From a bacterium TMED161 (GTDB taxonomy: Bacteria; Fidelibacterota; Marinisomatia; SCGC-AAA003-L08; D37C17): 64,000 nucleotides of DNA. The stretch covers positions 7,629 to 71,628 of the forward strand of contig NHHK01000020.1 in NCBI GenBank assembly GCA_002171125.1. The letters run 5' to 3'. The notes under the pieces are model-generated. The model saw only the letters and a program-made list of their open reading frames with translations, ran no database searches and was not told where the DNA came from. The stretch's first letter is position 1. Each line of letters opens with the position of its first letter. The position numbers and the translations under genes were made by a program. This document shows positions 7,885-23,353 of the stretch, in pieces.

Positions 7885-10059
7885 ATGTTATTTTATTATC
7901 ATATTAAAATCTTGTGCAGACTAGTTCTGGTTACATTTTTTACACTTTCATGTGCTTATTTTAATACTTTTTATAATGCTCAGGATGCATTCAAAAATGC
8001 AAAAACTATAATTGATAATAAAAAGTATACAGAAACTGACATCCCCATTGAGGCTAAAAAGTTTTTGGACGACGCTATAATTAATTCTAAAGTTGTTTTA
8101 CAGAACTACCCTGATAGTAGATGGGTTGAGGAAGCATATTATATTTTAGCTGTTTCTTCTTTACTTAAAGAAGATTACAAAGGCTCAAAAGAATATTTTT
8201 CTATTTTATTAGATACCTATCCTAAAAGTAAGTACTACATAGAGTCAATTCTATGGCTTTCCTTTTGTGAATATAGATTAGATCGTGTTGATTCTTATAA
8301 AAATTATATTTCTAAACTAATTGATAATGGTAAGAAATTGAATAGATACCAAAATTATATATATAATCAGATACTTGCTAAAGTAAGTATTGATAAAAAT
8401 AATACTCAAGATGTATATAAATATCTAAATTTATGCTTAAAGTACTCATCGAGCGACAGTGAGAAAATAAATATTTTTAATCAATTTATCAATTATTCAG
8501 AGAATATTGATGACTATATTACATTAGTTGATAATTTAGAAAAATTATATGATACACTTGAAGATGATCGAGATAAGAAAAATGTTAAATTGACAGCATT
8601 AGAATTTCATAAAATAAATAAGAATTATACTTATTTAATCACAGAAATTGAAAGGCTATTGAACCTATCATCATTCAATAATAAAAGACTTTTTTTGAAT
8701 TTAGAATTAGGTAAAATTTATTATCAAATGAATGACTATTCTTCTGCAAAGCAAATTTTTTATAATCTAACATCTGATAATTCAAAGAAAAAAGAAACAG
8801 CAGAAGCTTTTTATCTACTTGCAAAAATAAATATTGAAGAATCTTTTGATTTCTCTATTACAAAAGAATTATTAGAAAAGTCAAAAAATGAAAAATCAAG
8901 CTCAAAAGCTGGAAAACTAGCTAAAAAAACCCTGACAAAGATTGAGGACTTAGAAGATTTGATTTATGAATATAATCTTTCAACAAATATAGATTCTTCT
9001 GAAAACAATGAATTGCTTAGAGCGGATTCACTTTTATTTTATATAGCAGAGAGCTTTTATTTTGATTTTAATAAAATAGATTCATCTATTTTTAGATACA
9101 AGGAGTTAATAAAGAAATATCCTAATAGTAACCCATTTGCTGCGATGTCACTTTATGCCCTAAATGGAATTGATCCTAGTAATAATTTTATAGATACACC
9201 TGAAAGTTCATGGTTAGATATTGCTAAGCAGAAGTTTCCTAATTACTCAATCGATAATATCTCCTCTCAAGAATATATTGATAAATTATTGCCAATGTTA
9301 GATTTAGTTAACAGCTACAACCTTACTGACGCGTATATTATTTTAGATGAAATCCTAAATAATGATGTTGAATTATCATTTTATAAGGGACTGTTTAATG
9401 AGATCTATTTTTATAATACTGATGAAATGCTTATTAACTATATTAATTATGCAAACACTGATTCTGATAAACGAAATCTTGATACAGTTAAAGAAAAACT
9501 TTCTTCTTATTATTATATTATTAATGAAGACATTAAAAGTATTAAGACAGAGGCTAAATTGTCAGATTGTTGCGATAAAATAATTAATAATTATGATTTA
9601 GATTCAATTTATTTTTGTTTTGAAGAAATAAATGATATTGATGATTATTATTCATACGATTCTGTAAAAGTGAGAATTGATGAAATTATTCCAGGTTCGC
9701 CTTCATCTTTTAAAAGAAATATGTCACATTTTGATATTCTTTATAATAACTTCCAATCCAAATTTAGTTTTATAAGAGATAATATCGTCGTTGATTCTAT
9801 TTATTCACCAAATAGTTTTAGTGATTCATTAAAGAAAATAATCCAGAATTCAATAATTACTTATGAGCAGAATAATAATAATCCCAGCTCTAAAATCATT
9901 GATTTGGATAGATATTTGAATAGATATGAAAGTTTGAATTTTGTTGATACTTCTGATAAGGATGTTAAAATATCTAAAGAAAAAGATATCATGAAATTTG
10001 AAGATTTAAATTTTGAAAATTTAGAACTTGAAAAATTAAAATTAAATTTAACAAAATAA
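7885..10059 (+). CDS. TPR-repeat lipoprotein
   Basis: Signal peptide ending FFTLS-C (lipobox). The N-terminal CAYFNTFYNAQDAFKNAK and repeated helical Y/L/A-rich pairs are typical of TPR proteins. There is weak similarity of the N-terminus to BamD/SprE-type lipoproteins (from memory only). Confidence 0.6.
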   Translation: MLFYYHIKILCRLVLVTFFTLSCAYFNTFYNAQDAFKNAKTIIDNKKYTETDIPIEAKKFLDDAIINSKVVLQNYPDSRWVEEAYYILAVSSLLKEDYKGSKEYFSILLDTYPKSKYYIESILWLSFCEYRLDRVDSYKNYISKLIDNGKKLNRYQNYIYNQILAKVSIDKNNTQDVYKYLNLCLKYSSSDSEKINIFNQFINYSENIDDYITLVDNLEKLYDTLEDDRDKKNVKLTALEFHKINKNYTYLITEIERLLNLSSFNNKRLFLNLELGKIYYQMNDYSSAKQIFYNLTSDNSKKKETAEAFYLLAKINIEESFDFSITKELLEKSKNEKSSSKAGKLAKKTLTKIEDLEDLIYEYNLSTNIDSSENNELLRADSLLFYIAESFYFDFNKIDSSIFRYKELIKKYPNSNPFAAMSLYALNGIDPSNNFIDTPESSWLDIAKQKFPNYSIDNISSQEYIDKLLPMLDLVNSYNLTDAYIILDEILNNDVELSFYKGLFNEIYFYNTDEMLINYINYANTDSDKRNLDTVKEKLSSYYYIINEDIKSIKTEAKLSDCCDKIINNYDLDSIYFCFEEINDIDDYYSYDSVKVRIDEIIPGSPSSFKRNMSHFDILYNNFQSKFSFIRDNIVVDSIYSPNSFSDSLKKIIQNSIITYEQNNNNPSSKIIDLDRYLNRYESLNFVDTSDKDVKISKEKDIMKFEDLNFENLELEKLKLNLTK

Positions 10060-10071
10060 TCCTATTAAGGC

Positions 10072-10266
10072 ATGTTTAATAAAATAAAAATATTATGGGC
10101 AATGAAAAATTGGCCTAAGGAATATATAAAATGGAGATTTGAAACAGCTTACCCTAATGGTCTATTCGATGTAATTTCAAACCCTATACAATTTTTGAAA
10201 GATAGTTGGGCTTTTATTTCTTGGTGTGAGAATATAGATTCTAAAATAAATAGAAAGATTAATTGA
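10072..10266 (+). CDS. Hypothetical small Trp-rich protein
   Basis: 64-aa ORF packed 1 nt upstream of pyrD on the same strand. No recognisable family. Confidence 0.35.
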   Translation: MFNKIKILWAMKNWPKEYIKWRFETAYPNGLFDVISNPIQFLKDSWAFISWCENIDSKINRKIN

Positions 10267-10267
10267 T

Positions 10268-11176
10268 ATGCTTAGTATGAAAATTAAGGATGTTATTTTT
10301 AACTCCCCTATAATTGCAGCTAGTGGAACTTTTGGATATGGGAATGAAGTAGAGAAATTTATTGACCTTTCTAAATTAGGTGCTGTTATTACCAAATCAA
10401 TTACCCTCCAGCCTAGAGAAGGAAATATTTCCCCAAGGATACATGGTTCAGATTCAGGTATGATTAATTCAATTGGTTTAGCAAATATTGGAGTTGAAAA
10501 ATTTTGTAAAGATAAAGTTGAATCTCTTAATAATTTAAAAACCAAATATATAGTTAGTATTGCAGGCTCTACAATTGATGAATATGTCGAAATCCTGACT
10601 CAAATAGAGCAGTCTAACGGTAATCATGTAGGATACGAAATTAATATATCTTGCCCTAATGTCAAACAGGGAGGAATAGAGTTTGGTGTTAATACGGATA
10701 TTGTATCTAGTCTAACTCATCAATTAAGGCAGTTAACACAAAAATTATTAATAATTAAACTTACTCCAAACGTCACAGATATTTCTGAAATTGCTCTTTC
10801 TGCTCAAGAAGGTGGTGCTGATGCTATTAGTGCGGTGAATACTTTTCAAGGATTAGCAATCGATTATAAAACTGGAAAAATGCTTTTGTCAACCACTTTT
10901 GGTGGAGTTTCTGGCTCACCTATTAAGCCTCTAGCTTTAGCTAAAGTGCATAAAATTTATAATAAAATTAATATTCCTATTATTGGCATGGGGGGAATTT
11001 GTACATATGAGGATACTATAGAATTTTTTAGAGTTGGTTCTTCAATGGTACAAATAGGGACCCTCAATTATAGAGATCCTGCATTAATAATAAATATTTA
11101 TGATAAATTAAATAAATTCATGTTAAAAAATAAGTTTTCATCTATTTCAGATCTTGTAGGAAACTATCATAATTAG
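10268..11176 (+). CDS. pyrD: Dihydroorotate dehydrogenase, class 1 (Cys catalytic base)
   Basis: IIAASGTFGYG, ITKSITLQPREGN, MINSIGLANIG and the active-site NISCPNVKQGG. Confidence 0.9.
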   Translation: MLSMKIKDVIFNSPIIAASGTFGYGNEVEKFIDLSKLGAVITKSITLQPREGNISPRIHGSDSGMINSIGLANIGVEKFCKDKVESLNNLKTKYIVSIAGSTIDEYVEILTQIEQSNGNHVGYEINISCPNVKQGGIEFGVNTDIVSSLTHQLRQLTQKLLIIKLTPNVTDISEIALSAQEGGADAISAVNTFQGLAIDYKTGKMLLSTTFGGVSGSPIKPLALAKVHKIYNKINIPIIGMGGICTYEDTIEFFRVGSSMVQIGTLNYRDPALIINIYDKLNKFMLKNKFSSISDLVGNYHN

Positions 11177-11594
11177 AATTTTATATGTCATATTTATTTT
11201 AGCATTTATTTCTTGCTACCCTTCACCTAGATATACAAATCTAGTTTCTAAACCAGACTCTAGAGATACAAAAGATACATTTTATGGTATTTCTTCCTTT
11301 TATGGCTTAGGAGATGGTTTTGATGGAAATTTAACTGCTAATGGTGAAGTATATGATAAAGATGGAATATCTGCTGCTCATAAGACCTTACCATTAAATT
11401 CAACTGTTAGGGTGACGAATTTAAATAATGGAAAATCAGTAAAACTAAAAATAAATGATAGAGGTCCGTATATTAAGGGTAGAATTTTAGACTGCTCTTA
11501 TGGCGCAGCAAAAGAGCTTGATTTTGTGCAACAGGGAACAACTGAAGTAAAAGTTGAAGTTATAAAGTGGGGTGATAATGAATATAAAAAATAA
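11172..11594 (+). CDS. rlpA: RlpA-like lipoprotein (DPBB domain), non-canonical start codon
   Basis: The tracked ORF (GTG 11412) contains only the second half of the DPBB domain. The same frame upstream encodes the lipobox signal peptide RILYVIFILAFIS-C and FYGLGDGFDGNLTANGEVYD..AAHKTLP. There is no ATG/GTG/TTG after the in-frame TAG at 11157. The start was set at ATT 11172 but could be ATC 11166, ATA 11169 or ATT 11178. Confidence 0.7.
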   Translation: MRILYVIFILAFISCYPSPRYTNLVSKPDSRDTKDTFYGISSFYGLGDGFDGNLTANGEVYDKDGISAAHKTLPLNSTVRVTNLNNGKSVKLKINDRGPYIKGRILDCSYGAAKELDFVQQGTTEVKVEVIKWGDNEYKK

Positions 11595-11859
11595 TTATAT
11601 AGTCCTAATTACTTTATTTGCTATTATTTATGGCAATATAAAAGATTTGACATATCCTGGATATAATCGTCTTTATTATTATACTGAATATCAATCTAGC
11701 AAACTGTCTTATTTAGATAAGATAGTTACAGAATTACCTAAGCATAAAGATATAAATATTCAGACGGATTATGGGAATAAGTACTCAATTGAATTGCAAC
11801 TTAATAATACAATAATTATGCATAAAAATGGTTCTAGAGTATATTCGACAAATAAATGA
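11578..11859 (+). CDS. Hypothetical protein with N-terminal hydrophobic helix
   Basis: ORF between rlpA and cdsA, ATGA-coupled to cdsA. No recognisable family. Confidence 0.4.
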   Translation: MNIKNNYIVLITLFAIIYGNIKDLTYPGYNRLYYYTEYQSSKLSYLDKIVTELPKHKDINIQTDYGNKYSIELQLNNTIIMHKNGSRVYSTNK

Positions 11860-12671
11860 TTAGTAGCTATAAAAATAATAGATTTATAATAAACTTTTTT
11901 GGGGTACCAATAATCCTTTCATCTATTTATTATGATTTTTTATTTCCATATTTTGTTTTAATCATTTTATGTGCATGTACTTTTGAGTATGTAAAACTCG
12001 TAAATAAATTAAACTCTAGAATAACTATTGCATTATTACTTCCTTTTAATATTATTGTTTTCATGAACTCGTTATTGAATATTTGTGATACTTATACTTT
12101 AATTATTTTATTTTTTATTATCTGTTTTTCATTTGAAGTTTTCTTATATAGCGAATCTAGCACTCAGAACATTTCTTTTAATCTTATGGGGTTTATTATG
12201 ATTGGATGTTGTTTAACAGAATCATTAATTAATATAAGATTTGCTTATAATGGATTTTATCATACATTGCTTTTATTCTTGAGTGTTTGGATTTGTGATA
12301 CTTTTGCTTATTTTTTTGGTTCAAAGTTCGGCAAAACTAAAATATTACCAGCAATAAGTCCTAACAAAACATGGGTCGGTAGCTTTTCAGGAATTATTGG
12401 ATCTTTCATTGTAGCATTTTCATTTTACTATTTTGACGATATTTTTGCTTTATCTTATAATATTAGCATGGTAGATGTTGTTTTAATTTCAGTTATAACA
12501 GGAGTTTTTGGGCAATTAGGTGACTTTGCTGAATCAATTATGAAAAGACAAGTAAATATAAAAGATACCGGAACAATATTACTGGGTCATGGCGGTTTCT
12601 TAGATAGATTTGATTCAATAATATTTGCAGCTCCACTTTATTATATTTATTTAAAAAACTCAATATTATAA
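11856..12671 (+). CDS. cdsA: Phosphatidate cytidylyltransferase
   Basis: Polytopic membrane protein with SPNKTWVGS and the C-terminal signature GDFAESIMKRQVNIKDTGTILLGHGGFLDRFDS. Confidence 0.9.
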   Translation: MISSYKNNRFIINFFGVPIILSSIYYDFLFPYFVLIILCACTFEYVKLVNKLNSRITIALLLPFNIIVFMNSLLNICDTYTLIILFFIICFSFEVFLYSESSTQNISFNLMGFIMIGCCLTESLINIRFAYNGFYHTLLLFLSVWICDTFAYFFGSKFGKTKILPAISPNKTWVGSFSGIIGSFIVAFSFYYFDDIFALSYNISMVDVVLISVITGVFGQLGDFAESIMKRQVNIKDTGTILLGHGGFLDRFDSIIFAAPLYYIYLKNSIL

Positions 12672-12683
12672 AAACATATTTAG

Positions 12684-14483
12684 ATGAAAAATCAAGAAAA
12701 TATAAATGTTATTTTAGCTACGGATTGTGGTTCTACTACAACAAAATCAATTTTAATTGAAAAAATTGATGGAGAGTATCGTCTATCACATAGAGGTGAA
12801 GCTCCCACGACTGTTGAGGCACCATTTGAAGATGTTACTCGTGGAGTAATAAATGCAATAACGGAGCTTGAGGAGCTTTCTGAGCGTAAAATTTTAGATG
12901 GAGAAAAATTTATAAATACATCTTCTGATAATAAAAATGGTATAGATCTTTATATATCAACAAGCTCAGCTGGTGGTGGTCTTCAAATGATGGTCGCGGG
13001 TGTTGTTAAAAATATGACAGGCGAAAGCGCCCAAAGAGCTGCCCTTGGTGCAGGATCTATTGTAATGGATATCATTGCATCAAATGATGGTCGAAAATAT
13101 CATGAAAAAGTAAAAAGGATAAGAGAGTTAAGACCTGATATGGTTTTATTGTCTGGAGGAGTAGATGGAGGTACTAAATCCCATGTTGTTGAGTTATCAG
13201 AAATTCTAGCTGCAGCTAATCCACGCCCTAGACTAGGTAATAATTATAAACTTCCAATAATCTATGCTGGAAATAAAGAAGCGCGAAAAGAAGTTAATAA
13301 GACTTTGGTTGATAAAATAGACCTTAAAATGGTAGATAATATAAGGCCGACGCTTGAAGTGGAAAACTTACAGCCTAGTCGCGATAAAATTCATGATTTA
13401 TTCATGGATCATGTTATGGCACAGGCTCCTGGTTATGACAAGTTAAAAAAATGGACGCATTGTCCAATTATGCCAACTCCTGGTGCCGTTGGAGAAATAA
13501 TTAAAAGAATTGCTAAAAAAGAGCAAATATCTGTTGTTGGAGTTGATATAGGAGGTGCAACTACAGATGTTTTTTCAGTTTTTGAAGATAAGTTTAATCG
13601 AACTGTAAGTGCAAATTATGGAATGAGCTATTCAATATGTAATGTGCTTGCAGATGCTGGTGTGGAAAATGTATCCAGATGGCTTAGTCATGAGCTCGAA
13701 GAGTCTGACCTAACAAATAGAATAGCTAATAAGATGATTCGCCCGACAACAATCCCTCAAACTCTTGATGAATTAATTGTTGAGCAAGCAATAGCTAGGG
13801 AAGCGCTTAGATTGTCATTTGATCAACATAAAAAGTTTGCAGTTTCATTAAAAGGAGTTCAGCAAGAAAGAACAATTTCAGATACATTTGATCAGACAAT
13901 GTCTGGGGAAACTTTAGTTAATATGCAAGACCTAGATATGATTGTTGGTTCAGGAGGCGTTTTATCTCACGCTCCAAGAAGAGAACAGGCCTGTAAGATT
14001 TTAATTGATTCCTTTCTTCCAGAAGGGATCACTGAATTATCAGTAGATTCAATTTTTATGATGCCACAACTTGGAGTTTTAGCTTCTGTTCATGAAAAAG
14101 CAGCTATAGAAGTTTTTAATAAAGATTGCCTTGTTCGTTTAGGGACATGTATTGCCCCTTTAGGTGAAGGTGAAATAGGTCAAGAAATATTAGACTATGC
14201 TATTTTTGTCGAAGGAGAAAAGCATATAGGTACCCTTAAGTATGGTGAGATAAAAGTTATTAAGGCTAAATATATCGAATGTAAAGCAAATTTAAACTTG
14301 AAAGGTAATTTCTCTATCCAAAATAAAAGTATTTTTGAAGGCACTGTTTATGGAGGAGAGGTTGGTATTGTTTTAGATGGAAGAGGAAGGCCATTTAACT
14401 TTAATATGAAAACGGAAAATAGGAAGTCTCTAATTGACAATTGGAGAAATACAATTAATGAATATCCTAATTTGGAGATATAA
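12684..14483 (+). CDS. GlmL/MutL-family ASKHA-fold ATPase-like protein (cluster gene A)
   Basis: Two actin/hydantoinase-type phosphate loops, ILATDCGSTTTK and VVGVDIGGATTDVF. Size and layout match the glutamate-mutase accessory GlmL family. Confidence 0.8.
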   Translation: MKNQENINVILATDCGSTTTKSILIEKIDGEYRLSHRGEAPTTVEAPFEDVTRGVINAITELEELSERKILDGEKFINTSSDNKNGIDLYISTSSAGGGLQMMVAGVVKNMTGESAQRAALGAGSIVMDIIASNDGRKYHEKVKRIRELRPDMVLLSGGVDGGTKSHVVELSEILAAANPRPRLGNNYKLPIIYAGNKEARKEVNKTLVDKIDLKMVDNIRPTLEVENLQPSRDKIHDLFMDHVMAQAPGYDKLKKWTHCPIMPTPGAVGEIIKRIAKKEQISVVGVDIGGATTDVFSVFEDKFNRTVSANYGMSYSICNVLADAGVENVSRWLSHELEESDLTNRIANKMIRPTTIPQTLDELIVEQAIAREALRLSFDQHKKFAVSLKGVQQERTISDTFDQTMSGETLVNMQDLDMIVGSGGVLSHAPRREQACKILIDSFLPEGITELSVDSIFMMPQLGVLASVHEKAAIEVFNKDCLVRLGTCIAPLGEGEIGQEILDYAIFVEGEKHIGTLKYGEIKVIKAKYIECKANLNLKGNFSIQNKSIFEGTVYGGEVGIVLDGRGRPFNFNMKTENRKSLIDNWRNTINEYPNLEI

Positions 14484-15589
14484 TGTCAAAATCGTACACA
14501 CCGGGTCTTAAGGTTTTAGAAAAAACTACGATTCAAAAAGAACGATTGCTTCCTTTAAAAGGAAAAGTTCATGTAGATAATTATCAAATTGTTGATGCAA
14601 ACCATATAGTCGCTTCGACTAAAATACCTGGTAATATTCAAATGATTAATATTGCTAATGAGTTAAATATTGATGCTGATCAAATTAAGGAATCTATGTT
14701 GTGCACTATTGATGAGTCTGTTTCAAAAGGCCAAGTTATTGCACGAAGTAAGGGACTTTTTGGATTTTTTAAGTCCGAAGTAAGGTCTCCTCTAGATGGT
14801 GTAATTGGTAATATTTCAGATGTTACAGGACAAGTCATAATCTCTGAAGCTCCTATTCCTATTGAAATCGATGCTTATGTTTCAGGTAAAGTAAATTCAA
14901 TAATTGATAAAGAAGGTGTTGTAATTAATTCAAGTGGGATGCTGATTCAAGGTATTATTGGAATTGGTGGTGAGAAAAAAGGAAAGATAAAAATTTTTAA
15001 TGAAACTGACACTGACTTTTCTAGTATTGAACAGGATGATATTTTAATTTTGAAATCTACATTAACATATGATCTTTATCAAAAAATAAATGATTTAAAT
15101 ATACAAGGTATAGTTTGTGGTGGAATAGATTATCAGACTTTAACAAAGATTTTAAAAAAGCCACTTGGAGTTGCAATTACTGGTATGGAAGATACTACAA
15201 CAATTATAGTTACTGAAGGTTTTGGCGATATATCTATGGCAGATAGAACTTATCAATTATTAAAAAACAATGTTTCTAAAATAGCATCAATAAATGGTGC
15301 AACTCAAATTAGAGCAGGTGTTATGCGTCCTGAAATTTTCATTGGCTCAACAGATAAGTCTATAGTTGAGGATTCTTTTGATGAAGATAAATTAGCAATT
15401 TCTATTGGCTCTAAAGTTCGAATAATTAGAGAACCATTCTTTGGGCTGATTGGAGAGGTAATAGAATTACCGAAAGAATTAGTTACTATTGATACCGAGA
15501 CAACTTCAAGGGTGGCTAAGATTAAGCTGAATGACGATAGTTATGAAATTATACCCAGAGCAAATTTAGAAGTTATATTATTAGATTAA
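14483..15589 (+). CDS. Soluble protein with barrel-sandwich-hybrid segment and C-terminal KOW/SH3-like segment (cluster gene B)
   Basis: TAATG overlap with gene A. SKGQVIARSKG..VRSPLDGVIGNI resembles lipoyl/biotinyl-type hybrid barrels but lacks the M-K-M attachment site. GSKVRIIREPFFGLIGEVIEL is KOW-like. Confidence 0.6.
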   Translation: MSKSYTPGLKVLEKTTIQKERLLPLKGKVHVDNYQIVDANHIVASTKIPGNIQMINIANELNIDADQIKESMLCTIDESVSKGQVIARSKGLFGFFKSEVRSPLDGVIGNISDVTGQVIISEAPIPIEIDAYVSGKVNSIIDKEGVVINSSGMLIQGIIGIGGEKKGKIKIFNETDTDFSSIEQDDILILKSTLTYDLYQKINDLNIQGIVCGGIDYQTLTKILKKPLGVAITGMEDTTTIIVTEGFGDISMADRTYQLLKNNVSKIASINGATQIRAGVMRPEIFIGSTDKSIVEDSFDEDKLAISIGSKVRIIREPFFGLIGEVIELPKELVTIDTETTSRVAKIKLNDDSYEIIPRANLEVILLD

Positions 15590-15607
15590 TTGTATTAATT
15601 TAGTAAG

Positions 15608-15865
15608 ATGATCAAAGACCAAAATATAATATCAACTTTTGCAAAAGAAATAGTTGAAAGAGGCATGTCAGTCCCAGCTATCTTTTTTTTAGAAAGTACA
15701 AAATATATATCTTTTATTGGTAGCCAGTTTCTTGTTTTCTTAGGCCCACTCGCAACATGTTTTATTAATAATAAAAAATATTATAATCTTGCAGAGTTAC
15801 TTGAAGATCGAACTAATATAGAATTTTTAATCAACGAAATCGAGAGATTGAGTATAAAAAATTAA
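15608..15865 (+). CDS. Small two-helix membrane protein (cluster gene C)
   Basis: 85 aa with two hydrophobic stretches. Its stop lies 1 nt before the next start. Confidence 0.5.
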   Translation: MIKDQNIISTFAKEIVERGMSVPAIFFLESTKYISFIGSQFLVFLGPLATCFINNKKYYNLAELLEDRTNIEFLINEIERLSIKN

Positions 15866-15866
15866 T

Positions 15867-16733
15867 ATGAACAAATCTATTAAATATACATTACTCTCTT
15901 CTTTAATAATTTTGTTTTATTTTTTTATACCTTTACCAATTTTTCTCGTTGGGAATGAAACAACTTTTGTTTGTGTGATTTTATTATGCTTTGTTGTTGA
16001 GTATTTTATTGAATCTGCCAAAAGTGGAGAGCCTATTTATATGAGACCTATAGCTGCGATAAAGGCTATGGAGGAAGCCGTAGGTAGAGCTACTGAAATG
16101 GGCACCCCAGTCTTATATGTTCCTGGGATATCTAGCTTAGATCAAATTGATACAATTTCCGGACTAACTATTTTAGGCCATGTTGCCGGCATGACTGCTG
16201 AATATGAGGCGAATTTGCATGTACCTGTATGTGTTCCGATTGTTATGGAAACAGCAAAAGAAACATGTAAAGAGTCCTATTTGAAAAAGGGAAGGCCTGA
16301 CTTGTATAGAAATGATATGGTTCATTATGTAACAGATGACCAATTTGCATATGCGGCAGGAGTTAATGGAATTATGTTGAGAGAAAAGCCAGCAGCTGTA
16401 TTTTTTCAGGGAAAATTTTATGCTGAATCATTAATTCTAGCAGAAACAGGAAACTCTATTGGAGCAATTCAAATAGCAGGTACTGGTTCATCATCGCAGA
16501 TTCCTTTCTTTGTAACTGCATGTGATTATACTTTAATTGGTGAAGAATTTTATGCGGCTTCTGCATATTTATCCGGAAGTCCTGAGATGCTAGGAAGTAT
16601 TAAGGGGCAAGATTATGTGAAAGTTGGCTGCATGATTGCCATTCTGATAGTTTTTATTTCATCCCTATTAAATGGTTATGGAATTATTGACTTTAATATT
16701 GAAAGTTTATTTAGGACTAATGTAGTTAAGTGA
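15867..16733 (+). CDS. Membrane protein: N-terminal TM helices, ~200-aa alpha/beta domain, C-terminal TM helix (cluster gene D)
   Basis: Hydrophobic N- and C-termini flank a polar domain (GTPVLYVPGISSLDQ..AGTGSSSQIPFFVTACD). No family recognised. Confidence 0.6.
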   Translation: MNKSIKYTLLSSLIILFYFFIPLPIFLVGNETTFVCVILLCFVVEYFIESAKSGEPIYMRPIAAIKAMEEAVGRATEMGTPVLYVPGISSLDQIDTISGLTILGHVAGMTAEYEANLHVPVCVPIVMETAKETCKESYLKKGRPDLYRNDMVHYVTDDQFAYAAGVNGIMLREKPAAVFFQGKFYAESLILAETGNSIGAIQIAGTGSSSQIPFFVTACDYTLIGEEFYAASAYLSGSPEMLGSIKGQDYVKVGCMIAILIVFISSLLNGYGIIDFNIESLFRTNVVK

Positions 16734-17533
16734 AAAGGCAAATTGCATATTTTTTAGTAATATTTATTGGTTTTTTAACCCTATTAGGCCATTTTATTAA
16801 TTATCCTCCACTGAACGACTTTATAGATAATGACGCAACTCAATGGTTTGATATTATATCTGGATTTGCTGCATTTTTAGGTGTTATTAATTTATTACAA
16901 TTACATCTTAATAAAGTTGCGAATAAAAGAAAACATTATCAATATAGTATAATTACACTATTTGGATTTATTATTATGATAATTTTTGGTTTTATTTATA
17001 ATGGATCTAATGTTCCAATGGGACCACACCTTAAGGAAGAAGGCTCTGCATTTTATTGGATGTTTCAGAATATATATCTACCTCTTGGAGCAACCATGTT
17101 TGCTTTGCTAGCATTTTTTGTAGCTTCTGCATCCTACCGTGCTTTTAAAATTAGAAATTTCGAAGCTACATTGTTATTAGTTTCTGGAATATTTTTAATG
17201 CTTGGAAGAGTGCCTGTAGGTCAATTAATACCATGGTGGCTATCCCTCGAAATTTATATATGTCTTATTTTTGCAATTGCTGCGGGATTATTTGCTAATA
17301 AAAAAACATTGTTTTATACTTTGTTAATATCAATGATAATATTTCCCTTTATAATTTTACAATTAAATCTATCTCAATTAGCTATTTTTAAAATTCCAGA
17401 TTTGCAAGAATGGATAATGGATGTTCCTGCGACAGCTGGTTCAAGAGCAATCATGATTGGAATTGCATTAGGAACAATAGCTCAATCGTATAGAATTATA
17501 ACTGGTAGAGAAAGGTCAATCTTAGGTGACTAA
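16730..17533 (+). CDS. Polytopic membrane protein (cluster gene E)
   Basis: GTG start overlapping the previous TGA (GTGA). About 7 hydrophobic segments. No family recognised. Confidence 0.6.
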   Translation: MKRQIAYFLVIFIGFLTLLGHFINYPPLNDFIDNDATQWFDIISGFAAFLGVINLLQLHLNKVANKRKHYQYSIITLFGFIIMIIFGFIYNGSNVPMGPHLKEEGSAFYWMFQNIYLPLGATMFALLAFFVASASYRAFKIRNFEATLLLVSGIFLMLGRVPVGQLIPWWLSLEIYICLIFAIAAGLFANKKTLFYTLLISMIIFPFIILQLNLSQLAIFKIPDLQEWIMDVPATAGSRAIMIGIALGTIAQSYRIITGRERSILGD

Positions 17534-18440
17534 ACTTTTTACTAATATAAAAAACTATTTAATTGATTTAGGTAAGCTTGATAGGAGGTATATATTTTTA
17601 CTTATAGGTTTATCTGTTTTAATTCCTTTGATGAAACCTAATTGGATAAATATACCTATAAAAACTACAAATAATTCTCAGATTGTATTTAATGAACTCA
17701 ATAAGCTAAATGAAGGCGATAGGGTTTTAGTCTCTTTTGAATATGGAGCTAGTACTAAACCAGAAATTCACCCTATGTCTGTCGCAGTTTTACAGCATTT
17801 ATTCTCTAAAGGTGTAAAAGTATATACAGTACCGCTTTGGCCAGAAGGTTTAATGATGGCAAAGTATGCCATTCAAGAAGTAGTAGATTCTAAGTTGTTT
17901 AATATAAAAGAACATGTTGATTATGTCAGTCTTCCATATAAAGCAGGTGGAGAGATTATTATACGCGGCATTGCAACAGATCTTCGTTCAATATTTACGC
18001 AAGATGTAAACAATATTTTGTTAAAAGAAATACCAATGATGAAAGGTGTTAATCGAGTTTCAGACTTTGACTTTGTTTTTGACTTATCTGCTGGTGTACC
18101 TGGTAACGCAGAATGGGTGCAGTTTGCCTGTGATGAATATAAGGTGCCATTATCATCTGGATGCACTTCTATAATGGTTACAGATGCTATCCCTTATGTT
18201 GAATCAGGACAAATCAGAGGAATCTTAGCTGGCATGCCAGGAGCAGCTGAATATGAGCAGATGGTATTTAAATATTTGAATAGTTTAGACAAAAATAAAT
18301 ATATGAATCCAGATATAGCAGTGGTGCCAGGTAAGGCAACATCAAGAATGTCAGCACAATCTATTGCACATGTATTAATGGTTGTGTTTATTATCCTAGG
18401 AAATATCTCATATTATCTTCTAAGAAGGAGAGCTGAGTAA
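17526..18440 (+). CDS. Membrane protein with the same TM / alpha-beta domain / TM layout as gene D (cluster gene F)
   Basis: GTG start with an 8-nt overlap. N-terminal TM, a polar domain (DRVLVSFEYGAS..SSGCTSIMVTDAIPYV) and a C-terminal TM. Confidence 0.6.
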   Translation: MTKLFTNIKNYLIDLGKLDRRYIFLLIGLSVLIPLMKPNWINIPIKTTNNSQIVFNELNKLNEGDRVLVSFEYGASTKPEIHPMSVAVLQHLFSKGVKVYTVPLWPEGLMMAKYAIQEVVDSKLFNIKEHVDYVSLPYKAGGEIIIRGIATDLRSIFTQDVNNILLKEIPMMKGVNRVSDFDFVFDLSAGVPGNAEWVQFACDEYKVPLSSGCTSIMVTDAIPYVESGQIRGILAGMPGAAEYEQMVFKYLNSLDKNKYMNPDIAVVPGKATSRMSAQSIAHVLMVVFIILGNISYYLLRRRAE

Positions 18441-19162
18441 TGTATGAGTTAATAGGAGTTTGGTGTGTTGTACTATTAACACTAAGTATATTTAGTTACC
18501 TCTATGGTGACAATCCATTTTATAAGGCGGCAGAGCATATATTTGTAGGTGTTTCAGCTGGATATGTATTTACAATAACATTTTGGGATACGATTTGGCC
18601 TAATCTATTTGGAAGATTATTCCCTAAATATGTTGGTGCGGGTTTTAGCTTTGATATAACATATATCTTCCCTTTGATTCTTGGTGTATTTATGCTTTTT
18701 AGACTTTCAAAAAAATATGATTGGCTTTCTCGTATTTCAATCGCTTACATCGTAGGCATGATGGCCGGATTAAAATTTTATGTATTTCTTAATTCAAATT
18801 TATTGACTCAAATCAAAAGCTCAACAGTTAATCTATCTGGTACTTACTTCAGTATATTTAATGATTTAATTATTTTAGTTGGTGTTATTTCTGGACTTGT
18901 TTACTTTTTCTTTTCTAAAGAACATACTGGAGCATTAGGAAAAATAAGTAGAATTGGAGTTTATTTCCTTATGATTAAGTTTGGAGCATCTTTTGGCTTT
19001 GCAGTTATGGGAAGAATATCACTTTTGATAGGTAGGTTTGAAGAACTTATAGAATTCAGTAAGCCAGAGTATTACTATTCAACTCCAGTAACTTTATTAA
19101 TTATGATAATGATCATAGGATATTGGGCGTATAAAGATAATACTAAACCTTTAGAAAAATAA
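18440..19162 (+). CDS. Polytopic membrane protein (cluster gene G)
   Basis: TAATG overlap with gene F. About 6 hydrophobic segments. No family recognised. Confidence 0.6.
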
Positions 19163-19175
19163 TTTTGAGGAGACT

Positions 19176-20708
19176 ATGGAAGATATTTTAAAAGAATTAT
19201 TGATTCAAAAAGAAAATTACGGTTCGTGCATTGGAGGTGAGGGTTGGTTAGAGACAACAAATCTAGGTGAGTTTAAATCAATAAATCCATCAAATGGTGA
19301 TCAAATAGCATCAGTATATAAATGTTCTGACCAAGATTATGAAAAAGTTGTAAAATATTCATCCGAAGCATTTAAAGAATGGAGAAAAGTACCTGCCCCA
19401 GAAAGAGGGCAATTAATTTTTGAGATGGGAAATAAATTAAGAGAACATAAAGATGCTCTTGGTAGTTTAGTATCATTAGAAATGGGAAAAATAAAAGCAG
19501 AAGGTGATGGGGAAGTTCAGGAGATGATTGATATTGCTGATTTTGCTGTTGGATTATCTAGGCAGCTTTATGGCCTCACAATGCACTCTGAGCGTCCAGA
19601 TCATAGAATGTATGAGCAGTGGCATCCAATTGGTAATGTTGGAATTATTTCTGCATTTAATTTTCCAGTAGCTGTATGGGCATGGAATTCTTTTATAGCT
19701 GCTATATGTGGAAATATTTCAATTTGGAAGCCATCTGAAAAGACGCCATTAACTGCAATTGCAGTTCAAAATATTTGTAATCAGGTCTTAAAAGAAAACA
19801 ATCTTAAGGGAATCTTTAACTTAGTCGTTGGCACCGGCGATGAAATTGGTAAAAAATTAGTAAATGATAATAGAATTCCCCTTATTTCAGCCACTGGTTC
19901 AACAAGAATGGGAAAGACTGTTGCTCAGGATGTAGCTAAACGTCTAGGGAAGACTATACTAGAATTAGGTGGAAATAATGCCATTATTGTTGATGAGACT
20001 GCCAGTATGAATTTAGTAGTACCAGCAATAGTTTTTGGTGCAGTAGGTACTGCTGGTCAAAGATGTACTTCAACTAGACGAATTATTGCTCATTCATCTA
20101 TTATGGATGATTTAGCCTCAAAATTAGTTAGCGCATATAGTCAAGTAAAAATTGGAGACCCACTTGATGCTAATACTTTAATGGGTCCACTTATTGATCA
20201 GATGGCAATTGATAATTATAAAAATGCTATAGATAAAGCAAAAGAGGAGGGTGGTGAGGTCCTTTGTGGTGGGAATCCAATTCAATTTAATAATGGTTTT
20301 TTTGTTGAACCAACTATTATTAAGGTTGAAAGTGATTTTGAAATTGTCAAAGAAGAGACTTTTGCACCAATCTTATATATAATGAGTTATAATAATTTAG
20401 AAGAAGCTATTGATATCCATAATGATGTACCACAAGGGTTGTCTTCGGCAATATTTACGAATAATGTTATTAATTCTGAAAGATTTTTATCTGCCAGAGG
20501 AAGTGACTGTGGAATTGCAAATGTAAACATAGGAACCTCTGGTGCAGAAATAGGTGGTGCATTTGGAGGAGAAAAAGAGACAGGTGGTGGACGGGAATCT
20601 GGTTCAGATTCATGGAAAGCATACATGAGACGACAAACAAATACAATTAATTGGAGTCATGATCTTCCGTTAGCACAAGGAATTAAATTTGATTTGGAGA
20701 ATAATTAA
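19176..20708 (+). CDS. ALDH7-type aldehyde dehydrogenase (alpha-aminoadipic semialdehyde / piperideine-6-carboxylate dehydrogenase)
   Basis: GAGGAG Shine-Dalgarno sequence. Aldehyde dehydrogenase motifs ELGGNNA and catalytic GQRCTSTRR. The N-terminal and C-terminal regions ([14 protein letters not shown]) are typical of the ALDH7/AmaB group. Confidence 0.8.
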
Positions 20709-22060
20709 TGATTAAAGCAAATGATGTTAAAGGTATACTATCAAAAAATATTTTAGCTGATGGTTTTACCCCAATAATGGATTTAGAAAAAAGTAAAGGT
20801 TCCTATATAGTTGATCAATTGAAAGGTGAAAAACATTTAGATATGTTCTCTATGTTTGCTTCAGCTTCCATAGGATACAATCACCCTAAAATTGTAGAAA
20901 ATACTGATTTGCTTGGTAAGGTTGCAAAAATAAAACCTACATTGTCAGATTTGTATAATGTTTATTATGCTGAATTTTTAGATACATTTAATAGAATTGC
21001 AATTCCAGACTACTTACCTCATGCTTTTTTTATAGAAGGTGGCTCATTGGCGGTTGAAAATGCCCTTAAAATTGCATTTGACTGGAAAGTTCGGAAAAAT
21101 CTTGAATCAGGAAAAGGAAAGAAAGGCTCACAAATAATTCATTTTAAGCAAGCTTTTCATGGAAGATCTGGATATACAATGTCATTAACAAATACGACGG
21201 ACCCACGAAAAACAATGTATTTTCCAAAATTTGATTGGCCCAGAATTGAAAATCCATATCTAAGTTATCCAATTACTTCAGATATTATTGAAAATGTTAT
21301 TAAAAATGAACAAATTGCTATAAATCAGATTAAAGATGCATTAACTAAAAACAAAGATGATATCGCAGGATTAATTATTGAGCCAATTCAAGGTGAAGGA
21401 GGTGATAATTTTTTTAGATGTCAATTTCTTCAAATGCTAAGAGATCTTGCAAATGAAAATGAATTTCTTCTTATTTATGATGAGGTCCAAACTGGTATCG
21501 GGATTACTGGAAAAATGTGGGCACATCAAAATTATACACCTAATTTATGTGAGTGTGACCCTCCAATTATAGAAAAGCCTATTCCTGATGTTATGTCATT
21601 TGGTAAAAAGACTCAAGTATGTGGAGTATTAGCAGGTAAAAGAGTCGAAGAAGTCGACAAGCATGTATTTAATGAATCTAGCAGAATCAATTCTACTTTT
21701 GGTGGAAATCTTGTGGATATGATGAGATTTAAATTAATACTAGAAGTTATAGAAGAAGAGAATTTATTAGATAATGCAAAAAAAGTAGGTAGTTACTTGC
21801 TTTCCGAATTAGAAAATCTTGAACATAGTTATCCTGCCTATTTAACAAACTCTAGAGGTTTAGGGCTATGGGCAGCTTTTGACCTTCCTTCAATGACAGA
21901 AAGAGATGAGTTGTGGAGTAGAATGCTTGCAAATAAACTTCTAATATTGCCTTCAGGAGATAAATCTATAAGGTTTAGACCTCATTTGAATGTTAATAAA
22001 GAAGAAATTGATGAAGCTATAGGTATTATTGAAATGTCAATAAAACAATGCCTAAAATAA
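20708..22060 (+). CDS. lat: L-lysine 6-transaminase (class III aminotransferase)
   Basis: The N-terminus LADGFTPIMDLEKSKGSYIVD..FSMFASASIGYNHP and the PLP-lysine region SFGKKTQVCG match the LAT family. TAATG-coupled to the ALDH7 gene. Confidence 0.75.
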   Translation: MIKANDVKGILSKNILADGFTPIMDLEKSKGSYIVDQLKGEKHLDMFSMFASASIGYNHPKIVENTDLLGKVAKIKPTLSDLYNVYYAEFLDTFNRIAIPDYLPHAFFIEGGSLAVENALKIAFDWKVRKNLESGKGKKGSQIIHFKQAFHGRSGYTMSLTNTTDPRKTMYFPKFDWPRIENPYLSYPITSDIIENVIKNEQIAINQIKDALTKNKDDIAGLIIEPIQGEGGDNFFRCQFLQMLRDLANENEFLLIYDEVQTGIGITGKMWAHQNYTPNLCECDPPIIEKPIPDVMSFGKKTQVCGVLAGKRVEEVDKHVFNESSRINSTFGGNLVDMMRFKLILEVIEEENLLDNAKKVGSYLLSELENLEHSYPAYLTNSRGLGLWAAFDLPSMTERDELWSRMLANKLLILPSGDKSIRFRPHLNVNKEEIDEAIGIIEMSIKQCLK

Positions 22061-22749
22061 ATTTAGGAACTCTTTATGTCGTATCTACACCAATAGGTAA
22101 TCTTCAGGATATAACTAAAAGAGCTTTAGATTGTCTTAAAACAGTTGACTACATACTTTGTGAAGATACTCGAATTACTAATAGATTACTATTAAAGTAC
22201 AATATACAATCAAAGTTGATTAGCTATAATGAGAAAAATGAACATAATAGAATTTCTAAAGTAATAGATGATTTGAATAATAATTTTAACATAGCTTTAG
22301 TTTCCGATGCTGGAACACCATGTATTAGTGACCCTGGTTATAGATTAGTTTCTCATATTAAAAAAAATAATTTAGATTTCAATGTACTTCCACTACCCGG
22401 ACCATCTGCAGCTTTAAGCGCATTATCTGTATCTGGATTACCCTCTGATAGTTTTTATTTTGTTGGATTTTTACCTAAGAAAAAGGGAAGACAAAAAAAA
22501 ATAAATCAGATAAAAGAAATTGATTCAAGTATAATATTGTATGAAGCTCCATATCGAATTAATAAAACATTAAGTGATTTATATTCATATCTAGGCGATA
22601 GAAAGATATTTATAGCAAGAGAAATGACTAAAATGTATGAACAGCATTTTTATGGTACCATTAAATCAATGATTGATCAAAATATCCATATTAATCCTAA
22701 GGGTGAATATGTAATTATAATAGCAAAAGAAGGATATCTTGTTGAATAG
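22048..22749 (+). CDS. rsmI: 16S rRNA (cytidine1402-2'-O)-methyltransferase
   Basis: LYVVSTPIGNLQDITKRALDCLKTVDYILCEDTR and SDAGTPCISDPG motifs. Confidence 0.9.
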   Translation: MPKINLGTLYVVSTPIGNLQDITKRALDCLKTVDYILCEDTRITNRLLLKYNIQSKLISYNEKNEHNRISKVIDDLNNNFNIALVSDAGTPCISDPGYRLVSHIKKNNLDFNVLPLPGPSAALSALSVSGLPSDSFYFVGFLPKKKGRQKKINQIKEIDSSIILYEAPYRINKTLSDLYSYLGDRKIFIAREMTKMYEQHFYGTIKSMIDQNIHINPKGEYVIIIAKEGYLVE

Positions 22750-23353
22750 ATTTATTGTATTTGAAGGTATAGATGGGTCAGGTAAATCTACTCAAATTAA
22801 GTTACTTGAGCAGAAATTAAAGCAATATTCAATATCTTTCTCCACATTTAGGGAGCCTGGAGGAAATCTGTTGTCAGAAAAGATTAGAGAAATCTTATTG
22901 GATAAAGATATTTCCATATGTGATGAATCCGAGCTTATGCTATTTCTTGCTGCTAGAGGACAAAATACAGAAGAGGGGATTTTAAAAGAATTAAGTCAAG
23001 GTAAGTTTGTTATATGTGATCGCTATTCTGATAGTTCTATGGCTTATCAAGGATTTGGTAAGGAACTAGATAAAGATTTTATAAATTCTTGTAATAAATT
23101 TGTAACTAAAGGAATAACTCCATCTATAACAGTTATTTTAGATATTTCACGGAATGTATCCAAAAATAGAGATGATAGTGAAAATGATCGAATGGAAAAT
23201 AATTCTAATACATTTTTCATGAAAGTTGAAGAGGGATATCGTAAAATAGCAAAAGCGTATCCTAATAGATATTTATTGATTGATGGTTCTTTAAATATTG
23301 AACAGATACATAACTTAATTTGGAGTAAGTTTAAAAAGGAATTTGATTTATGA
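22739..23353 (+). CDS. tmk: Thymidylate kinase
   Basis: P-loop FIVFEGIDGSGKSTQ and the DRY-type motif CDRYSDSSMAYQG. Confidence 0.9.
   Translation: MLNRFIVFEGIDGSGKSTQIKLLEQKLKQYSISFSTFREPGGNLLSEKIREILLDKDISICDESELMLFLAARGQNTEEGILKELSQGKFVICDRYSDSSMAYQGFGKELDKDFINSCNKFVTKGITPSITVILDISRNVSKNRDDSENDRMENNSNTFFMKVEEGYRKIAKAYPNRYLLIDGSLNIEQIHNLIWSKFKKEFDL

Follow-up and report, generated by a model that had tools for sequence, protein, structure and literature searches.

A 64,000-nucleotide stretch (hereafter the window) of contig NHHK01000020.1 from the bacterium TMED161, which exact-sequence matching identifies as a marine metagenome-assembled genome of Marinimicrobia (SAR406), carries seven consecutive genes, A to G, in which an actin-fold (ASKHA) ATPase of the MutL/GlmL family stands together with a set of membrane proteins. 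We found that this block extends across much of the bacterial tree: the ATPase gene A with its partner B, the small gene C and the membrane-protein genes D-E-F-G co-occur in at least 12 phylum-level lineages, and this cross-phylum synteny is the decisive evidence that the genes are not together by chance. An earlier note, made from the letters of the window, had proposed that the ATPase was recruited to a dedicated membrane complex and not to a B12-dependent mutase; the co-occurrence bears this out. Overall, the observation in that note was confirmed and its interpretation partly supported. The seven open reading frames (ORFs), all on the same strand, are as follows.

Gene A, 12684..14483, + strand, 599 aa: cytoplasmic actin-fold (ASKHA) ATPase that forms a distinct subfamily within Pfam MutL/GlmL.
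Gene B, 14483..15589, + strand, 368 aa: soluble obligate partner of A, with a barrel-sandwich-hybrid segment, a central alpha/beta part and a KOW/SH3-like C-terminus.
Gene C, 15608..15865, + strand, 85 aa: small conserved accessory protein, no family.
Gene D, 15867..16733, + strand, 288 aa: Pfam DUF6754; transmembrane (TM) helix, predicted cytoplasmic Rossmann-like domain, TM helix.
Gene E, 16730..17533, + strand, 267 aa: polytopic membrane protein by hydropathy.
Gene F, 17526..18440, + strand, 304 aa: TM helix, predicted periplasmic Rossmann-like domain, TM helix.
Gene G, 18440..19162, + strand, 240 aa: polytopic membrane protein by hydropathy.

The genes had been described as joined throughout by start/stop overlaps. 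Such overlaps occur at four of the six junctions (TAATG between A and B and between F and G, GTGA between D and E, and 8 nt between E and F), while the remaining two, read directly from the sequence, are gaps of 18 nt (B to C) and 1 nt (C to D). Packing within the window proves nothing alone, because the entire co-directional run from 7885 to 25755, with tRNA genes at both ends, is equally tight; the caution that adjacency by itself does not define the unit was well placed. In GenBank, B to G are named as hypothetical proteins.

We scanned one genome per GTDB species with a pattern search, which gave at least 596 confirmed stretches, and kept the best 80 loci. Their neighborhoods (flanks of ±10 kb) were read by tblastn with the window proteins and by independent ORF clustering. 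The loci are labeled as Marinimicrobia/Fidelibacterota, Eisenbacteria, Lentisphaeria, WOR-3, Stahlbacteria, Zixibacteria, Ignavibacteria, Fermentibacteria, Aegiribacteria, Coatesbacteria and Planctomycetota, together with a few single metagenome-assembled genomes under other labels; Latescibacteria appear among the protein matches. The gene order is strongly kept: by crude ORF clustering, D is followed by E, F and G for 74 of 83 D genes, and the genes missing from the exceptions were recovered by tblastn among the matches listed, save at one lone D. A and B are never separated from each other, and 32 of the 49 loci whose upstream flank reaches at least 6 kb contain both. Conservation over 82 loci is limited to the families A to G and an eighth gene, H; their canonical order is H-C-A-B-D-E-F-G, and H occurs outside Marinimicrobia. 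In three loci that lack A-B (L015, L016 and L019), H-C still lies upstream of D, which ties the soluble and the membrane parts of the system together. The A-G block is thus conserved across phyla beyond chance adjacency, and the true unit is wider than seven genes: outside Marinimicrobia it takes in H, and an A-B pair can be accompanied by as many as three D-E-F-G modules. The system, of which the block in the window is the Marinimicrobia form, is ancient and vertically conserved, in hundreds of mostly uncultured bacterial species, and this vertical, highly conserved distribution argues against a role in defense.

The assignment of gene A to the GlmL/MutL family proved correct: Pfam MutL (PF13941) matches it at 426.7 bits (cut-off 27), over model positions 1-450 of 450 and residues 10-482 of the protein. 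The narrower models were not reached: A scores 227.1 bits with the GlmL equivalog NF040745 (cut-off 475), 169 with TIGR01319 (cut-off 204) and 222.8 bits with NF040744 (cut-off 600), the model for Or-4, which is a GlmL-related protein of ornithine degradation. With GlmL and Or-4, gene A shares the Pfam family, the ASKHA fold and intact phosphate loops and adenosine motif. Unlike them, it scores below half of their equivalog cut-offs, carries an extra C-terminal domain of ~120 aa (residues ~481-599), is always paired with B, and is linked to D-E-F-G and never to mutase subunits. By these sequence comparisons, A forms a separate MutL subfamily. The two phosphate-loop motifs that the earlier note quoted, ILATDCGSTTTK and VVGVDIGGATTDVF, are present and invariant across phyla. 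The ASKHA patterns for phosphate-1 (DxGxT), phosphate-2 (DxGGxTxD) and adenosine (GSGG) all occur in A, and the corresponding ATDCGSTTTK, GVDIGGATTD and GSGGVLSHAP show no variation among 17-41 sequences drawn from several phyla. Cross-phylum identity is 56-68%, with ~270 of 600 positions invariant, including all three nucleotide-binding motifs. Judged from these motifs, A is predicted to be catalytically intact as an ATPase. Neither single-sequence nor profile searches found a relative of A among PDB sequences.

That no mutase subunit occurs nearby also held up, within the reach of the searches made. The flanks contain no conserved mutase, and a probe of approximate sequence for the B12-binding mutase subunit GlmS drew no match from the window or from the 1307 flanking ORFs; GlmE was not probed. 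The glmS/glmE adjacency expected of GlmL is absent from the 82 loci, where only A-G and H are conserved. We rejected a canonical GlmL role for A, given the failed equivalog cut-offs and the lack of a mutase. GenBank labels the gene 'methylaspartate mutase' (OUW20567.1), despite its being a MutL-family ATPase that falls short of the GlmL cut-off and has no mutase partner; anyone reconstructing the metabolism of Marinimicrobia or related phyla could be misled by this label.

For gene B, the calls of a barrel-sandwich hybrid and a KOW domain hold at the level of the family. Among 18 members scanned, RnfC_N matched 11 (best member E = 3e-6), Biotin_lipoyl 10, NQRA_N 6 and KOW 4; in the window protein itself all domain matches lie below gathering scores (RnfC_N 18.5 bits versus a cut-off of 25.6). 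B is 40-50% identical across phyla, has 71 invariant columns, and is never found apart from A save where a contig ends. The M-K-M cofactor site is indeed missing, as had been noted: the family consensus there, IAxxKGFFGLFK, contains neither MKM nor DKA, and in the absence of such a modifiable-lysine motif a biotin or lipoyl carrier role was rejected. The weak RnfC_N and NQRA_N matches in the N-terminal domain of B invite a comparison with Na+-NQR and Rnf, whose inventory is superficially alike: a soluble barrel-sandwich-hybrid protein, bitopic alpha/beta proteins and two polytopic proteins of ~200-270 aa. In contrast to those complexes, no subunit here matches an Rnf-Nqr, FMN_bind or Fe-S domain, and E and G are mutually unrelated. 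Single-sequence and profile searches returned no PDB relative of B, and no NqrA or RnfC chain even at E ≤ 10. With only a weak barrel-sandwich signal and no other Rnf/Nqr domain, homology of B to Rnf/Nqr was rejected.

Gene C, detected in 39 loci, is 85 aa long in the window and ~110-185 aa elsewhere. It had been described as a two-helix membrane protein. We found one moderately hydrophobic central stretch, and the family-averaged hydropathy stays below the TM threshold, so that its membrane status is unproven. Its position differs between lineages: in Marinimicrobia it separates B from D, and in other phyla it immediately precedes A (H-C-A-B). Gene H encodes a protein of ~150 aa with two TM helices and a C-terminal domain that gives weak bacterial-PH matches; in 13 loci outside Marinimicrobia it is the gene just before C (for example L033:2558-3010, L044:5661-6134 and L070:5415-5855). 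We searched for H in the window and found it absent.

The membrane proteins were analyzed by hydropathy for their TM segments, and D and F also by AlphaFold2 (AF2) modeling and Foldseek. D had been taken as a protein of unrecognized family. It is in fact a member of DUF6754 (PF20539; 371.7 bits versus a cut-off of 27), a Pfam family of unknown function, which comprises 2016 clusters at 50% identity with members 45-69% identical to the window protein, and 65 columns are invariant in 125 sequences. A vestigial N-terminal hydrophobic stretch is followed by a TM helix (31-49), a Rossmann-like domain (50-249) and a second TM helix (250-268). In long homologues, a signal peptide and an fn3-like domain or a PQQ/BamB-type beta-propeller precede the TM helix and the DUF6754 core. 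Because signal peptides and ectodomains precede the TM helix, and from positive-inside counts, the conserved ~200-aa domain of D is predicted to be cytoplasmic. The AF2 model (pLDDT 76.9, pTM 0.75) has a six-stranded Rossmann-like domain between two TM helices; its three low-confidence segments coincide exactly with the most conserved motifs, at residues 161-172, 186-198 and 211-219, as would be expected of loops that bind a partner or ligand. Foldseek searches of this model against the PDB gave only generic Rossmann-like matches, with a best E of 0.09. One Zixibacteria chromosome (CP070824.1) encodes, at 9461-10696 of locus L057, a lone 795-aa DUF6754 protein without E, F or G alongside; the same chromosome has D-E-F(-G) elsewhere (L075), and no locus other than L057 clearly departs from the D-E-F-G order.

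Gene F has the same layout on the other side of the membrane. Its TM segments (20-36 and 270-303) enclose a six-stranded Rossmann-like domain of ~210 aa (49-260), and both tails are basic (DRR at the N-terminus, RRR at the C-terminus), which by the positive-inside rule suggests an N-in/C-in topology with the domain in the periplasm. Residues Q278, H282 and N293 of the second TM segment are conserved. The AF2 model is of high confidence (pLDDT 91.7, pTM 0.87), and Foldseek against the PDB returned only generic Rossmann or GT-B half-domains and G-protein-coupled receptor fusion constructs, at a TM-score of about 0.3; the fusion constructs mimic the TM-Rossmann-TM layout. D and F do share the architecture that had been noted, TM helix, six-stranded alpha/beta domain and TM helix, with the same order of secondary structures. 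The suggestion that they are distant paralogues found no support at the level of sequence: hhalign gave a probability of 1.0% and E = 0.054, over a TM segment only, and the two domains lie on opposite faces of the membrane, D in the cytoplasm and F in the periplasm, as predicted from positive-inside counts, signal peptides and ectodomain fusions. When the alignments of all seven families were compared with one another by hhalign, no internal paralogy emerged, E and G included.

Hydropathy agrees with the earlier description of E and G as polytopic. E has about 6-8 hydrophobic segments and the signature PLxATMFALLAFFVASASYRAFRxRN. In two E proteins from third modules (L082:15631-17406 and L068:14689-16461), an FG-GAP/VCBS beta-propeller of ~370 aa is inserted, at a site located by split tblastn matches, which break off near query residue 88 and pick up again near residue 112. 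Because the propeller is inserted there, and in agreement with the charge pattern, the loop around residues 91-114 of E is predicted to be external. G has 4 segments above the hydropathy threshold and up to ~7 by eye; it is 41-58% identical across phyla and conserves the motifs LYxDNPFYxxxEH and YFFFSxEHxG. For C, E, F and G we found no Pfam, NCBIfam or PHROG family, with 36-39 diverse members scanned for each of E, F and G; the E family shows sub-threshold hydrophobic noise (TMD0_ABC in 11 of 39 members, best E = 2e-4). Profiles of D, E, F and G found nothing significant among PDB sequences. Thus the statement that C-G contain no known transporter, secretion or respiratory family stands, as far as Pfam and NCBIfam searches and, for D-G, PDB profiles extend.

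The membrane part of the system is often multiplied. Eighteen loci, mostly labeled Zixibacteria or Ignavibacteria, contain two or three tandem D-E-F-G modules (three in L033, L042, L048, L050, L053, L060, L066, L068, L073 and L082), and A-B is single-copy in these loci wherever it is present. In neighbor-joining trees of F and of G, which carry no support values, first, second and third modules fall mostly into separate clades across Zixibacteria- and Ignavibacteria-labeled loci. These paralogue clades cut across lineages in both trees, which points to an ancient triplication and to modules that evolve as units. The single Marinimicrobia module forms its own clade near a group of second-module and Planctomycetota sequences. 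The ectodomains vary between modules and lineages (fn3 or a PQQ/BamB-type propeller on D, FG-GAP on E) while the core is constant, and D of Marinimicrobia has no ectodomain.

Several WOR-3/Stahlbacteria loci (L084, which is CP070705.1, 13282-18382; L032, L035 and L038) contain D-E-F-G without A-B within 10 kb. Downstream of the module there, a PatA_N (PATAN) protein, four small proteins and ExbB-ExbD-ExbD-TonB form a conserved run, which may reflect lineage synteny or a functional link to an envelope-energizing or motility-type cluster.

How might such an arrangement work? We propose, as a tentative reading that we rate just short of probable, that the A-B ATPase drives a D-E-F-G membrane complex for transport or mechanotransmission. 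D, E, F and G would form one complex of ~15-20 TM helices, which would present the Rossmann-like domain of D to the cytoplasm and that of F to the periplasm; in most lineages D or E would add variable ectodomains, fn3 or beta-propeller, to the periplasmic side. A and its obligate partner B would constitute a cytoplasmic module that docks on the cytoplasmic face of D-E-F-G, most likely at the Rossmann-like domain of D, much as related ASKHA factors of B12 enzymes engage Rossmann-like subunits. ATP binding and hydrolysis would then produce a conformational cycle that is passed through the TM helices to the periplasmic domains, where it may move or remodel the envelope or a periplasmic substrate. 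As many as three paralogous D-E-F-G modules would share a single A-B pair.

An actin-fold-driven membrane machine, one of the hypotheses first offered for this locus, is compatible with all our findings. We count in its favor the invariant ATP-binding motifs and extreme conservation of A, as well as the conserved polar residues in the TM segments of F. Several observations weigh against it. The evidence for contact of A-B with D-E-F-G is synteny, and A-B is missing from the surrounding 10 kb in 17 of the 49 well-flanked loci, WOR-3 and some Zixibacteria among them. To our knowledge, the biochemical function of the GlmL/MutL family itself is unproven, and a sequence search found no family member with a solved structure. 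None of the findings gives a clue to a substrate, and the very strong conservation of the cytoplasmic domain of D could mark an enzyme as readily as a coupling domain. Among known envelope machines, the type VII ABC systems (MacB, LolCDE, FtsEX) offer an analogy only: they too combine a cytoplasmic ATPase with a TM-flanked periplasmic alpha/beta domain, as in F, and do the kind of periplasmic work proposed here. Unlike them, the present system has no ABC ATPase and no FtsX/MacB_PCD domain, and A has the actin fold.

The same observations can be read in other ways. A-B may instead be a maturation or reactivation chaperone, in the sense of GlmL and the reactivases, which loads or exchanges a corrinoid or other large ligand in the D domain; once matured, D-E-F-G would act without A-B, as an enzyme bound to the membrane or as an ion-translocating complex. 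The family of A holds accessory genes of B12-dependent mutases, and the partners of such accessory proteins are Rossmann-like cofactor-binding subunits. The domain of D is likewise Rossmann-like, and its ~65 invariant residues, which include Cys219 and several acidic residues, resemble the conservation of an enzyme. The conserved polar residues in F could make an ion path, and the loci that lack A-B nearby are easier to accept for a maturation factor. In the B12-enzyme reactivases (DdrAB/PduGH, EutA) and the RACo-type activators, an ASKHA ATPase with a small partner opens a Rossmann-like client with ATP, and the proposed action of A-B on D follows their logic; unlike theirs, the putative client is membrane-anchored, and A shows no detectable sequence relation to the solved reactivases. 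D moreover has no B12-binding signature, no invariant His and no Pfam B12-binding match, no cofactor-biosynthesis or redox gene is conserved in the neighborhood, and the 56-68% identity of A and its fixed pairing with B look like those of a core subunit and not of an occasional repair factor. On balance we consider the chaperone explanation unlikely, though it is the strongest of the alternatives. We give distinctly less credence to a transmembrane receptor or signaling device, whose ectodomains would sense a periplasmic or surface ligand, with A-B acting as its output or regulator in the cytoplasm. A constant core with variable ectodomains of the fn3, PQQ-type and FG-GAP propeller kinds would suit a sensor, as would several paralogous modules with one common cytoplasmic pair, or the PatA_N (PATAN) and ExbB/ExbD/TonB genes downstream in WOR-3 and Stahlbacteria loci. 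However, no kinase, cyclase, helix-turn-helix or other output domain was found anywhere in A-H, Marinimicrobia retain the system without any ectodomain, and four membrane proteins with ~15-20 TM helices are heavy for a sensor.

Slightly more doubtful still is a cytoskeletal role in shape or positioning, with A as a polymerizing actin-like protein and D-E-F-G as its anchor, in the manner of MreB-MreCD/RodZ or PilM-PilNO. The actin fold of A, its conservation at a cytoskeletal level and its coupling to bitopic and polytopic membrane proteins with periplasmic domains recall PilM-PilN-PilO, FtsA and MreB-MreC-MreD, in which an actin-fold cytoplasmic protein is likewise combined with inner-membrane proteins of this kind. 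Unlike in those assemblies, A comes from another ASKHA family, and no peptidoglycan-synthesis, elongasome, division or pilus genes are conserved nearby; the tandem triplication of the membrane module would be odd for an anchor, and the MutL/GlmL family is grouped with the non-polymerizing enzymes and chaperones of the actin superfamily (PMC5597319).

There remains the suggestion, prompted by the genes that follow the block, of lysine uptake or channeling, or else that A is a GlmL for a B12 mutase encoded elsewhere and its adjacency to the other genes a matter of packing in a streamlined genome. The lysine genes, which begin 13 nt past G, are what they had been taken for: an L-lysine 6-transaminase (LAT; 608 bits, cut-off 521) and an L-piperideine-6-carboxylate dehydrogenase (ALDH; 804 bits, cut-off 730); the genome is also tightly packed throughout. 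The role drawn from them does not follow: the pair is adjacent in only 11-12 of the 80 loci, all Marinimicrobia-type, and in every other phylum the A-G genes occur together without ALDH/LAT, on which ground lysine channeling was rejected. A lies below both GlmL-type equivalog cut-offs, the approximate GlmS probe was negative in the window and flanks, and chance cannot account for a gene order kept over at least 12 phylum-level lineages. We regard this group of explanations as highly improbable; between them, the findings effectively refute lysine channeling, a canonical GlmL role and chance packing. That genes of lysine breakdown lie beside the block is a local accident, and the system has no demonstrable connection to glutamate mutase or lysine catabolism.

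The genes upstream of the block deserve brief mention. A cdsA gene (phosphatidate cytidylyltransferase; 11856-12671) ends 12 nt before gene A; this adjacency is kept in 18 loci, Marinimicrobia-type without exception, and is probably lineage synteny. Further upstream, positions 11172-11594 encode an RlpA/DPBB-type lipoprotein with a signal peptide ending in LAFISC, whose homologue is a 163-aa gene in locus L001. The frame opens at the pyrD stop and has no ATG, GTG or TTG before 11412, so that an ATT or ATA start is probable; the ORF lister had shortened this gene to 60 aa. Straight after the tRNA cluster, 7885-10059 encode a 724-aa TPR-rich protein with weak, sub-cut-off matches to YbgF, BamD and the type IX secretion lipoprotein PorW/SprE.

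Our literature search found no paper that mentions DUF6754, PF20539 or the gene cluster, and nothing relevant on PF13941, on GlmL as an ASKHA protein or on methylaspartate mutase in these phyla. In our judgment the system falls into no class described so far, and none of its components matched a solved structure or a protein of known function. It is possible, and we say so with more reserve than for the mechanism itself, that it represents a new class of envelope machine, in which a GlmL-type ASKHA ATPase, and not an ABC, AAA+, P-type or rotary one, powers a heterotetrameric inner-membrane complex, with one ATPase pair common to as many as three modules that bear different ectodomains. If so, primary active transport, or mechanotransmission across the membrane, would have been solved here in a new way, one found through much of the FCB and PVC 'dark matter' phyla. 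If A-B energizes D-E-F-G, this would be the first membrane machine run by a GlmL-type ATPase, and it would give the MutL/GlmL family a second, testable biological context. The system occurs mainly in abundant, poorly understood lineages (Marinimicrobia/SAR406, Zixibacteria, Latescibacteria, WOR-3, Fermentibacteria, Ignavibacteria and Planctomycetota), and conservation as high as that of A (56-68% identity) and D (45-69%) usually signals core cell biology.

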